Shown: positions 53,361-57,178 of the stretch, one piece after another
Position numbering within the stretch: position 1 is the stretch's first letter
Layout of the letters: the number at the start of each line of letters is the position of its first letter
NCBI GenBank assembly: GCA_000146045.2
Contig: BK006947.3
Location: 128,001 to 192,000, forward strand
Source: TPA_inf: Saccharomyces
Lineage: Eukaryota
DNA: 64,000 nt
Reading direction: 5' to 3'
Program-made: the position numbers and the translations under genes
The notes under the pieces: generated by a model
The model's input: the letters and a program-made list of their open reading frames with translations, nothing else
The model's database searches: none
Told to the model about the DNA's origin: nothing

Positions 53361-54608
53361 CTAACGTCTTGGACCTCTTCCTCTTCTTGTCATTTCAGGT
53401 AGCTTAAATGGAACTTTCATAGTGGCAATTTTATAAGAAGCTGCAGTACTTTTTGGAATGCCAAAAGCCTCAGCTTGAGCCACTGTGGCACCTTTGACAA
53501 TAGCACCAAGTACCCTGAACAAACTGACAACTTTGGAAGGTTTCAAGTTCAATTCGTGTGCTAAGGGTGTGATTTCAACAATGAAGTTATCCAAATGCAT
53601 TATGATTGCCAAGATGTAGCATAAGATTTTATCTTCATTTTGTGGGTCAATGAAATAGGAGCGATCCTTTGATCTTCCAAACTGTCCAGGCTTTATCACG
53701 GTAAATCTGCTTAAGATACCATCTACCAAGATTTCAGGAGGACTGTTCAACCTTTCTAACAACTTCGTCTTGTTATTCACGCGTCTATTTTCGTATACGC
53801 CCAGTAATAGTGATAAGTAGTATAGTAGCTGTAATTTGGTCATTTGTGAAGGTTGTGTCAAAGAGTCCAATTTCTTTGCCACATACTTGGAATTGTTTTG
53901 GTATGGGAACAATTCCAACTTCTTTTCCTTATCCGCTTCTTTCAGAATTGATGAAACGCGAATAAACTGTAATTCCTTCTTTGGTATTATACTTTCAATT
54001 GGGTAAATTTGTTCTACATCAGTGGCATCGATATTGGCTAATGGAGTAGGTCTATCGTTGGAAGTAATTTCATCCAATTGAGCCCGAGTTGGTAAATCCT
54101 TAGATGCAGTTCTCACGGAATCCACAATGTCAATAGCAGAATCAGTCAACTTATCAGAGTCAATACGGTTTCTTTCTAGATCTGCAATAGCTTTTTTAGC
54201 CTTTTTAGTACCAAACGCTTCACCCAACGCATTTCTCAAAGCAGATGGACGAGTATCACTCTTACTTTTTATTTTTGGACCCCTTAGATTCTTGCTTGAC
54301 TTGGATACAACTTTGGAAACAAGTACGGGAGCCTTGTAGAGTTGAATACTTTTCTTTTCTGGATTAAATAGGCCCACAACATACTGGTTCGAAGCTTGGG
54401 AAGAAGAATCAGTATAACCTTCGTATTCTAGTCTCTCGTTTTCACCGTGTAATACGAATTCGTCCTTTTCAGACTTCTTTTTTTTGTATAAGTCGAACGT
54501 AGTGTCACTGGGAGCACGGAAGCCCTTGAAGAAACTTCCCACGGCAACAGAGGGTTGATCTTGAACACTTTCAATTTCGATTTCAGAAACAGACCTTTTC
54601 ACGGACAT
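53361..54608 (-). CDS. RPA49: RNA polymerase I subunit A49, 415 aa
   Basis: 415-aa ORF with ATG start (cat 54606-54608). Basic C-terminal tandem winged-helix-like region. PAC and RRPE motifs lie in its promoter (see regulatory features). Confidence 0.88.
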   Translation of the reverse strand: MSVKRSVSEIEIESVQDQPSVAVGSFFKGFRAPSDTTFDLYKKKKSEKDEFVLHGENERLEYEGYTDSSSQASNQYVVGLFNPEKKSIQLYKAPVLVSKVVSKSSKNLRGPKIKSKSDTRPSALRNALGEAFGTKKAKKAIADLERNRIDSDKLTDSAIDIVDSVRTASKDLPTRAQLDEITSNDRPTPLANIDATDVEQIYPIESIIPKKELQFIRVSSILKEADKEKKLELFPYQNNSKYVAKKLDSLTQPSQMTKLQLLYYLSLLLGVYENRRVNNKTKLLERLNSPPEILVDGILSRFTVIKPGQFGRSKDRSYFIDPQNEDKILCYILAIIMHLDNFIVEITPLAHELNLKPSKVVSLFRVLGAIVKGATVAQAEAFGIPKSTAASYKIATMKVPFKLPEMTRRGRGPRR

Positions 54609-54730
54609 TACTAGATAAAGTGCAAAAGGTTGATAACGACTGCAATAGTGGTAGCAACTTAAAAAGCCCTCCTAATATCATTAGTGTTCATGCAAGAATA
54701 CTTACTATTAAAAATGAGATGGAAAATTTC

Positions 54731-54740
54731 AGCTCATCGC
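54731..54740. promoter_or_regulatory. PAC element (reverse complement of GCGATGAGCT) in the RPA49/YNL247W divergent promoter
   Basis: Exact agctcatcgc, ~125 bp upstream of RPA49 and ~140 bp upstream of the CysRS ATG. PAC is the Dot6/Tod6-bound ribosome-biogenesis element. Confidence 0.7.
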
Positions 54741-54744
54741 AATA

Positions 54745-54755
54745 AAAAATTTTCA
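54745..54755. promoter_or_regulatory. RRPE (AAAAATTTT core) adjacent to the PAC elements
   Basis: aaaaaattttc read directly, 5 bp from the PAC motif. PAC+RRPE pairing is the hallmark of the Ribi regulon (Stb3-bound). Confidence 0.65.
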
Positions 54756-54778
54756 GCGCGGGTGACCGCAAACATTTT

Positions 54779-54785
54779 TCATCGC
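54779..54785. promoter_or_regulatory. Second PAC-core match (tcatcgc = reverse complement of GCGATGA)
   Basis: ttttTCATCGCgaaga; a 7-of-10 core match only. Confidence 0.45.
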
Positions 54786-54874
54786 GAAGAGTCAAAAGAC
54801 ATTATCAATTGAAAAGAACAGTATTGCTAATTGGCGTCGGTGATTAGGTGTCCGGTCAAGTTCTTATTCTATGC

Positions 54875-57178
54875 ATGAATATCTTCATAAAAGCCCTGAG
54901 AAGATATACTATAATGTCTACGCCGAAGATTGTGCAGCCCAAATGGAAGGTTCCAACGCCACAAGCTAAAGAAACTGTGTTGAAGTTGTACAACAGTTTA
55001 ACAAGATCTAAGGTTGAATTCATTCCGCAATCTGGCAATAGAGGTGTCACTTGGTACTCTTGCGGTCCTACTGTTTACGATGCCTCCCATATGGGTCATG
55101 CCAGAAACTATGTCTCTATTGATATCAATAGAAGAATTATTCAAGATTATTTTGGTTACGACGTGCAATTTGTGCAAAATGTTACTGATATCGACGATAA
55201 AATTATTTTGAGAGCTAGACAAAACTATTTATTTGACAATTTTGTCAAAGAAAATGATACCAAATTCAACGCCACTGTTGTTGACAAGGTCAAAACCGCA
55301 CTTTTCCAATATATCAACAAAAATTTTACTATTCAAGGCAGCGAGATCAAAACTATCGAAGAATTTGAAACTTGGTTATCGAATGCTGATACTGAAACTT
55401 TAAAATTGGAGAATCCTAAATTCCCTATGCATGTCACCGCAGTTCAAAATGCTATTGAATCAATCACTAAGGGCGATTCCATGGACGCAGAAGTTGCCTT
55501 TGAAAAAGTCAAGGACGTTACGGTTCCTCTATTGGATAAAGAATTGGGCTCTACCATTAGCAATCCAGAGATTTTCCGCCAACTTCCAGCTTACTGGGAA
55601 CAGAAATTCAATGATGACATGTTATCATTAAACGTGCTACCTCCCACCGTTACAACTCGTGTTTCTGAGTACGTTCCAGAAATTATTGACTTTGTTCAAA
55701 AAATTATTGATAATGGTTACGCATATGCCACTTCCGACGGTTCCGTGTACTTTGATACTTTAAAATTTGACAAATCCCCAAATCATGACTATGCTAAATG
55801 CCAGCCATGGAATAAGGGCCAGTTAGACTTAATTAATGATGGTGAAGGGTCCTTAAGCAACTTTGCTGATAACGGAAAAAAGTCGAATAATGATTTTGCT
55901 TTATGGAAGGCTTCCAAGGCAGGTGAACCTGAGTGGGAATCACCATGGGGTAAGGGTAGACCAGGATGGCATATTGAATGTTCTGTGATGGCCAGTGATA
56001 TCCTAGGCTCTAACATCGATATTCATTCAGGTGGCATCGATTTGGCCTTTCCTCACCATGATAACGAATTGGCTCAATCCGAGGCTCGCTTCGACAATCA
56101 ACAGTGGATCAACTATTTCTTACATACGGGCCATTTACATATTGAGGGTCAAAAAATGTCTAAATCCTTAAAGAATTTCATTACCATTCAAGAAGCTTTG
56201 AAAAAATTCTCACCGCGCCAATTAAGATTGGCTTTTGCCTCAGTACAATGGAACAATCAATTGGATTTCAAGGAATCTTTGATCCATGAAGTAAAGTCAT
56301 TTGAAAACTCCATGAACAATTTTTTTAAGACTATTAGAGCATTGAAGAACGATGCAGCTTCTGCAGGTCATATCTCTAAAAAGTTTAGTCCCTTAGAGAA
56401 AGAATTATTGGCTGATTTTGTTGAAAGTGAATCGAAAGTCCATTCGGCGTTCTGTGATAATTTATCCACACCTGTTGCTTTGAAGACACTGAGCGAATTA
56501 GTGACCAAGTCAAACACATACATTACCACTGCAGGTGCTGCTTTAAAAATTGAGCCCTTGATTGCTATCTGTAGCTACATCACCAAAATCTTAAGAATAA
56601 TTGGATTTCCATCCCGTCCTGACAATTTGGGTTGGGCAGCCCAAGCTGGCTCCAACGATGGATCCCTAGGCTCATTGGAAGACACTGTTATGCCATATGT
56701 TAAGTGTTTATCCACATTTAGAGATGATGTACGTTCCTTAGCTATCAAGAAAGCCGAACCCAAGGAATTCTTGCAATTAACGGATAAAATTAGAAACGAA
56801 GATTTGCTAAACTTGAATGTTGCCTTGGATGATAGGAATGGACAATCTGCCTTGATCAAATTTTTGACTAACGATGAAAAATTGGAAATTGTCAAGCTAA
56901 ACGAGGAGAAACATGCCAACGAACTAGCAAAGAAACAAAAGAAATTGGAACAGCAGAAATTAAGAGAGCAGAAGGAAAACGAGAGGAAGCAGAAAGCTCA
57001 AATTAAACCACAAGATATGTTCAAGGATGTCACATTGTACAGTGCTTGGGACGAGCAAGGCCTTCCAACAAAGGACAAAGACGGTAATGATATCACCAAG
57101 AGTATGACCAAGAAGTTGAAGAAGCAATGGGAACAACAAAAGAAGCTACATGAAGAGTACTTTGGTGAAGACAAATAG
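54875..57178 (+). CDS. CRS1: Cysteinyl-tRNA synthetase (class I aaRS), 767 aa from the first in-frame ATG; second in-frame ATG at 54914
   Basis: HIGH motif (SHMGHARNY) and KMSKS motif (KMSKSLKN). The track ORF starts at GTG 54848. First ATG 54875 ([20 protein letters not shown]...) gives 767 aa; the second ATG is 13 codons downstream. Confidence 0.88.

Follow-up and report, generated by a model that had tools for sequence, protein, structure and literature searches.

The forward strand of the window, by which we mean the whole 64,000-nucleotide stretch of DNA analysed, carries at positions 54875 to 57178 the long reading frame of CRS1 (YNL247W). [quoted passage not shown] A homologue search showed the 767-residue product to be 100% identical to the S. 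cerevisiae YNL247W/CRS1 protein P0001, and its identity to the cysteine--tRNA ligases of related species was 94% for S. paradoxus, 90% for S. eubayanus and 89% for S. arboricola. The product is a class I CysRS: precomputed annotation places the Pfam family PF01406 (tRNA-synt_1e) on the identical S. cerevisiae protein and on 120 of the 120 orthologues listed, and the translation of the CRS1 frame shows both class I motifs, KMSKS and HMGH, which is of the HIGH type. RPA49 (RNA polymerase I A49) lies upstream on the opposite strand, and a NAP-family (NAP/VPS75-type) gene and CWC25 lie downstream, all assigned from orthologous loci and from the lengths of the open reading frames in the window. The gene order is that of the YNL248C / YNL247W / YNL246W / YNL245C neighbourhood. 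According to published accounts, YNL247W/CRS1 is the sole CARS gene of S. cerevisiae (PMC10655014, PMC10821618, PMC8123711, PMC7358010 Table 2).

The start region contains two ATGs in the same frame, 13 codons apart. ATG1, on the forward strand at 54875 to 54877, has the weak context ctatgcATGaat, with T at -3 and C at -1, while ATG2, at 54914 to 54916 on the same strand, has the strong context actataATGtct, with A at -3 and TCT following. The optimal start context in yeast is AAAATGTCT, and that of ATG2 comes close to it. Reading from ATG2, which encodes Met14 of the long form, gives a short frame of 754 codons and a stop at 54914 to 57178, assigned to the cytosolic isoform by translation and by Table S1 of Higdon et al. 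A preliminary description of this DNA had placed nested in-frame ATGs with T and A at -3 at 54875 and 54914; these coordinates and contexts proved exact when checked against the sequence, and the lengths it gave for the two forms, 767 and 754 amino acids, were borne out by a frame that ends at 57178. The start coordinate of 54848 in the same description arose because the program that lists open reading frames opens this one at a GTG at 54848, right behind an in-frame TAG at 54845 to 54847.

This TAG, on the forward strand 10 codons 5' of ATG1, restricts any non-AUG N-terminal extension to nine codons. Aligning the RPA49-CRS1 intergenic region and first codons of five genomes (S. cerevisiae, S. 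paradoxus, S. eubayanus, S. arboricola and the Saccharomyces contig L004 from Logan) showed the TAG triplet to be invariant. Three of the five, S. cerevisiae, S. paradoxus and the Logan contig, have it in frame. It falls out of frame in S. arboricola and S. eubayanus because of an extra base between the TAG and ATG1, and in these two species the frame is open for 21 and 16 codons, respectively, upstream of ATG1. Initiation at an upstream non-AUG codon, in the manner of ALA1 and GRS1, was set aside, given the TAG 10 codons upstream in S. cerevisiae and S. paradoxus and the availability of an AUG.

A third ATG of the start region, missed in the preliminary description, sits 4 nt 5' of ATG1 and out of frame with it. 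Its context is tattctATGcat, with T at -3. [quoted passage not shown] Both ATG 54871 and the length of its uORF are identical in the five Saccharomyces genomes, as are ATG1 and ATG2 themselves. Sliding conservation across the five-genome alignment identified 54857 to 54890 (forward strand) as the most conserved block by the start region, with 13 to 14 of every 15 columns invariant; it covers the end of the leader of the long mRNA, the adjacent ATGs at 54871 and 54875, and the first codons. ATG 54871 was not found in the four distant yeasts whose DNA we compared. Nor did we find any mention of it in the CRS1 literature, in which the study of Nishimura et al. (2019) is represented here by the later papers that cite it.

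The contrast in start context between ATG1 and ATG2 proved less constant than the start codons. Position -3 of ATG2 is G in S. eubayanus and T in K. dobzhanskii, and we therefore rejected the Kozak contrast as a conserved feature. The nested arrangement is also not beyond chance by itself, as 4 of the 22 long ATG-initiated open reading frames in the window have a second in-frame methionine within 20 codons of the first. Among those four, CRS1 alone has an acid-free basic stretch of at least eight residues between its starts, and it is the composition and conservation of the extension that make the CRS1 case significant.

The 13-codon extension, at 54875 to 54913 on the forward strand, can on both these grounds be regarded as the isoform-specific part of a mitochondrial targeting signal. 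Its net charge is +3, and the count of three basic and no acidic residues among the 13 agrees with the earlier reading of it as basic and free of acid. In the long form no acidic residue precedes E33, so that residues 1 to 32 are acid-free, and residues 1 to 25 carry a net charge of +6. The extension thus has the net positive, acid-free composition expected of a presequence. The segments M-N-I-F and L-R-R-Y are invariant in the five Saccharomyces genomes, which also keep the length and frame. The helical moment came to 1.63 on the Kyte-Doolittle scale; as this value is uncalibrated, the amphipathicity of the extension is only suggestive. Thirteen amino acids is very short for a presequence, which counts against a role in targeting.

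To look beyond Saccharomyces we surveyed 115 Saccharomycotina gene models, the closest ones in which a QPxW motif served as anchor, taking as extension the residues upstream of the methionine nearest that motif. An extension was present in 75 of the 115, with a median length of 13 amino acids and a median net charge of +3; 62 of these 75 extensions were acid-free, and in 73 of the 75 a serine directly follows the second methionine (Met2). Overall the extensions contain 26% K/R, 2% D/E and 40% hydrophobic residues, against 16%, 5% and 20% in the next 20 residues. The remaining 40 models start at the position of Met2. For four species with short annotations, K. dobzhanskii, Cyberlindnera fabianii, Saccharomycodes ludwigii and Hanseniaspora valbyensis, we examined the DNA, and in all four an in-frame upstream ATG opens an acid-free basic peptide of 10 to 36 residues. 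Together with the 75 extension-bearing models, this shows the two-AUG design to be general among budding yeasts, with the 40 models annotated from the second methionine omitting the mitochondrial form.

These results bear on one alternative, that the extension is an artefact of annotation, with ATG2 the sole real start and mitochondrial CysRS activity supplied from elsewhere. The 40 models that begin at Met2, and the frequency with which nested ATGs arise by chance, are what such an artefact would produce. However, its frame, its ATG and its MNIF and LRRY residues would not be expected to be conserved, nor would an upstream ATG with an acid-free basic peptide be expected in each of the four short models examined. 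Going by the filter that Higdon et al. applied, the annotated start was also called in TIS-profiling, and the literature, including PMC7358010, the account in PMC10655014 and the mitochondrial proteome, places the protein in mitochondria. We consider that an artefact has almost no likelihood of being the explanation.

Published localisation data point to the same conclusion. In the eLife split-GFP study the first 100 residues of cCRS (N100) drove mitochondrial split-GFP fluorescence (PMC7358010). When Crs1 was expressed from the ADH1 promoter, the full-length protein was found in mitochondria only and the N-truncated protein in the cytosol only (PMC10821618). Ynl247w is also among the dual-localised proteins of the high-confidence mitochondrial proteome. 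The preliminary description had proposed a comparison of predicted localisation for the 767- and 754-residue forms, and this is effectively answered by the DeepLoc1.0 scores in Table S3 of Higdon et al.: the long (annotated) form scores 0.634 for mitochondrion, whereas the short form scores 0.809 for cytoplasm and 0.0036 for mitochondrion. The assignment of the long form to mitochondria and of the short form to the cytosol is thus supported by the split-GFP data, by the localisation in PMC10821618 and by the description of the isoforms given in PMC10655014.

It might be argued that the main targeting information lies downstream of Met14, in residues 14 to 32, with the short form partly imported and the extension merely tuning efficiency. 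Those residues hold four lysines and no acidic residue, and the N100 fragment of the split-GFP study covers the extension and the residues after it together (PMC7358010). Against this, the short form has a negligible mitochondrial DeepLoc score (the 0.0036 given above), N-truncated Crs1 was cytosolic only (PMC10821618), and the region is proline-rich, with 15% proline in the 20 residues after Met2 across the orthologues, which makes it ill-suited to an amphipathic helix. A signal lying mainly downstream seems highly improbable. It is more probable that the targeting signal consists of the extension together with the basic, acid-free stretch of about 20 residues that follows it.

The end of the extension resembles a processing site. 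R9-R10-Y11-(T/A/V)12 is conserved in the five Saccharomyces genomes and fits the R-2/Icp55 (R-3) cleavage pattern. Among the 75 yeast extensions, 48 have an arginine at positions -2 to -4 from Met2, and 72 have an arginine or lysine among the last five residues before it. From this pattern we infer that cleavage by MPP followed by Icp55 trimming may occur near R9-R10-Y11-T12. If cleaved there, the mature mitochondrial enzyme would start only two or three residues ahead of the cytosolic enzyme.

The question of how two proteins arise from one gene has been addressed at the level of transcription. As related by the same group in PMC10655014, Nishimura et al. (2019, JBC 294:13781) described a long mRNA that includes the mitochondrial targeting sequence and is translated from AUG1 to give the mitochondrial enzyme, and a short mRNA that lacks the targeting sequence and is translated from AUG2 to give the cytosolic enzyme, the evidence being 5'-RACE and GFP-reporter data. 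The two-mRNA account is repeated, in the passages of the reviews PMC11653698 and PMC9604717 that deal with CRS1. The report of alternative transcription initiation mentioned in the preliminary description exists, and is this study as cited in PMC10655014, PMC11653698, PMC9604717 and PMC7358010.

An independent data set is provided by the supplementary tables of Higdon et al. (bioRxiv 10.1101/2023.07.13.548938); the main text of that paper never names YNL247W, and the gene appears in the supplementary tables. Table S1 holds a TIS-profiling call at Met14, YNL247W_755aa_ATG, at chr14 175167-177432, described as 13 amino acids truncated, and its span equals 54914 to 57178 of the window exactly. 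By this match the window would lie at about chrXIV 120,255-184,254. The last column of that row is unlabelled and reads 8, which we take to be the number of samples with the call. Higdon et al. filtered out truncations for which the annotated start was not called, and ATG1 was therefore presumably called as well.

Table S2 of the same work lists YNL247W at all nine time points for TL-seq 5' ends between the two AUGs. This re-analysis masks reads upstream of the annotated AUG and looks for 5' ends lying before the start of the truncated form. The values in the first column, apparently empirical p-values, range from 0.0068 to 0.068 for YNL247W over the nine time points; the test compares ratios and its p-values are modest, and the cultures were meiotic SK1. 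The mapping of 5' ends relative to 54875 and 54914, which had been suggested as a check, is effectively provided by these data, as ends fall between the AUGs at nine time points. We found no entry for YNL247W in the supplements of Malabat 2015 and Chia 2021, where TSS coordinates were sought. On the literature and the TL-seq results, the 5' ends of the short mRNA must lie on the forward strand between 54878 and 54913, and for any start within this interval the leader would be at most 36 nt long. Three TSS-like motifs (A at -8, Y at -1, R at +1), at 54887, 54889 and 54898, predict possible start sites there.

The main competing explanation is that the short isoform comes mainly, or in substantial part, from leaky scanning on a single mRNA, in which ribosomes bypass both the weak ATG1 and ATG 54871. 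In S. cerevisiae the T at -3 of ATG1, set against the A at -3 and the TCT of ATG2, is what such a mechanism would need, and the weak context of ATG1 with an out-of-frame ATG before it leaves room for some bypass. Proximal truncations are, as a class, less often transcript-driven (Higdon et al.). A 5' end of the long mRNA near 54866, where there is a TSS-like motif, would give a leader of less than 10 nt, and a very short leader favours bypass of the start codon according to the account in PMC13219423. Set against this are the two mRNA classes described in PMC10655014, of which the short one lacks AUG1, and the TL-seq 5' ends between the AUGs. Full-length Crs1 driven by the ADH1 promoter was mitochondrial only (PMC10821618), although the leader of that construct was probably different, and the contrast in context is not conserved, as S. 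eubayanus and K. dobzhanskii show with G and T, respectively, at -3 of ATG2. We think leaky scanning unlikely to be a main or substantial source of the short isoform. Of the two routes considered at the outset, downstream transcription initiation stands on the strength of the literature as relayed by PMC10655014, while leaky scanning may make a minor contribution.

The choice of transcription start is itself reported to be regulated. Genetics and ChIP, outlined in PMC10655014, show that the start site is chosen under the control of the Hap complex, in line with the energy demand of the mitochondria. We examined the promoter for a site and found a CCAAT pentamer, a candidate Hap2/3/4/5 site, by motif scan on the reverse strand at 54830 to 54834, 41 nt 5' of ATG1. 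It is the single copy in the 266-bp RPA49-CRS1 intergenic region, compared with 191 copies in the 64 kb of the window, and one CCAAT per 266 bp is no more than chance. Sliding conservation puts it in the least conserved stretch; in S. paradoxus and the Logan contig L004 the CCAAT is displaced upstream by about 25 nt, to a place where S. eubayanus has CCAAC. We consequently rejected the pentamer as independent evidence of Hap binding on the grounds of its chance frequency, its poorly conserved surroundings and its shifting position. As the pentamer is at chance level and poorly conserved, the sequence alone does not speak for or against the published Hap ChIP.

The promoter, which is divergent and common to CRS1 and RPA49, does contain a block that is near-invariant in the five-genome alignment, at 54718 to 54795, its best conserved part. 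It holds what we take to be PAC-like (CTCATCGC, TTCATCGC) and RRPE-like (AAAATTT) elements. PAC and RRPE motifs are typical of the ribosome-biogenesis regulon. Such elements would be in keeping with constitutive expression of RPA49 and the short CRS1 mRNA.

The arrangement at CRS1 is of a familiar kind. The locus analysed here is that of Nishimura et al. (2019), with the same two in-frame AUGs, and, as far as that study is described in PMC10655014, there is no difference in kind; the dual-isoform design of CRS1 has been known since 2019. HTS1 (HisRS) and VAS1 (ValRS) are likewise single genes in which two in-frame AUGs flank a presequence (PMC7358010), and both produce a long transcript that begins before the first AUG and a short one that begins after it (PMC9604717, PMC8123711), as reported for CRS1. 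In its sequence CRS1 matches this type, its in-frame AUGs at 54875 and 54914 standing on either side of an acid-free peptide of charge +3. The extension is shorter in CRS1, at 13 codons, than in HTS1 (20) or VAS1 (46) (PMC7358010 Table 2), and control of start-site choice by the Hap complex, reported for CRS1 in PMC10655014 as far as that account goes, sets it apart from both. According to PMC8123711, no yeast disease model for CARS2/CRS1 is on record.

ALA1 and GRS1 resemble CRS1 in that one gene gives a cytosolic and a mitochondrial aminoacyl-tRNA synthetase through an N-terminal extension (PMC7358010). They differ in using upstream non-AUG starts (ACG -75 and TTG -69) on one mRNA, whereas the upstream start of CRS1 is an AUG. 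PIF1, as presented in PMC11229318, also has two consecutive in-frame AUGs that flank a mitochondrial targeting sequence, the first in the weaker context. PIF1 is of the leaky-scanning type, whereas the short isoform of CRS1 is attributed, in the account of PMC10655014, to a separate short mRNA. What the present analysis adds is minor: the conservation of the design across yeasts, the orthologue models that lack the mitochondrial form, and the conserved start of a uORF.

The uORF may add something to this design. Ribosomes scanning the long mRNA would meet ATG 54871 before ATG1, and some of them may be drawn into the uORF, which ends beyond ATG2, so that the output of that mRNA would be damped. 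A tentative extension of this idea, which we regard as rather doubtful, is that the uORF serves as a translational governor of the long mRNA, which would also encode a cleavable mini-presequence of about 11 residues, cut between RR and Y-T; the two would make up an extra layer of control, of which we saw no description in the texts consulted. By capturing some of the scanning ribosomes the uORF might also expose the long mRNA to NMD. The mitochondrial isoform could then be kept scarce, or the division of ribosomes between ATG1 and ATG2 could be set in this way.

Taken together, the evidence makes it very probable that the CRS1 start region yields two CysRS enzymes that differ by 13 N-terminal residues and that they arise from alternative transcription starts. 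Transcripts that begin 5' of 54875 would be translated from ATG1 to produce the 767-residue mitochondrial enzyme, the acid-free basic N-terminus of which would act as the mitochondrial targeting signal. Transcripts that begin in the 36-nt interval between the start codons would lack ATG1, and initiation at ATG2, in its near-optimal context, would produce abundant 754-residue cytosolic enzyme. Going by the literature, as represented by PMC10655014, the Hap2/3/4/5 complex would shift the choice of start in favour of the long mRNA when cells need to respire.

The locus explains how Cys-tRNA is charged in yeast mitochondria without a dedicated gene, with the supply of the enzyme tied to respiratory demand, and the synthesis of cysteine persulfide in mitochondria is reportedly also served by it. 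It is also a case in which a real dual-targeting design could be recovered by reading a genome sequence and nothing else.

[quoted passage not shown] This ATG and the length of its frame were the same in all five Saccharomyces genomes compared, and the four distant yeasts compared lack it. We found no mention of the out-of-frame ATG in the accessible literature. A 34-nt block (54857-54890), running from the last part of the long-mRNA leader through the first five codons, is conserved as well as, or better than, coding sequence. As the synonymous third positions of its AAT, ATC and TTC codons are invariant, there is a hint of constraint at the nucleotide level, for example from start-site selection or the overlapping upstream frame.

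The divergent promoter shared with RPA49 holds a second, near-invariant block (54718-54795), with two PAC-like elements (CTCATCGC and TTCATCGC), two RRPE-like elements (AAAATTT) and one CGGGTGA motif. PAC-like and RRPE-like motifs are typical of the ribosome-biogenesis regulon, and from its sequence the block looks like a site of control by that regulon. The only CCAAT of the S. cerevisiae intergenic region is on the minus strand (54830-54834). In S. paradoxus, and likewise in the Logan Saccharomyces contig, a CCAAT lies about 25 nt further upstream, within CAATTGG, where S. cerevisiae has CAATTGA. Because the site sits elsewhere in these genomes, the alignment suggests turnover, if Hap binds there at all.

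The neighbouring RPA49 (YNL248C; 53361-54608, minus strand) has a truncated isoform, YNL248C_161aa_ATG, 255 residues shorter, listed in Tables S1 and S2 of Higdon et al. (10.1101/2023.07.13.548938), with TL-seq support at 4-6 h.

Of 115 CysRS gene models from budding yeasts, 40, or about a third, start at the second methionine; among them are P0003, P0013-P0015 and P0028-P0030. All four of those checked, from K. dobzhanskii, Cyberlindnera fabianii, Saccharomycodes ludwigii and Hanseniaspora valbyensis, had an in-frame upstream ATG and an MTS-like extension (loci L006, 744-800; L007, 747-800; L008, 693-800; L009, 747-800). These annotations therefore omit the mitochondrial isoform.
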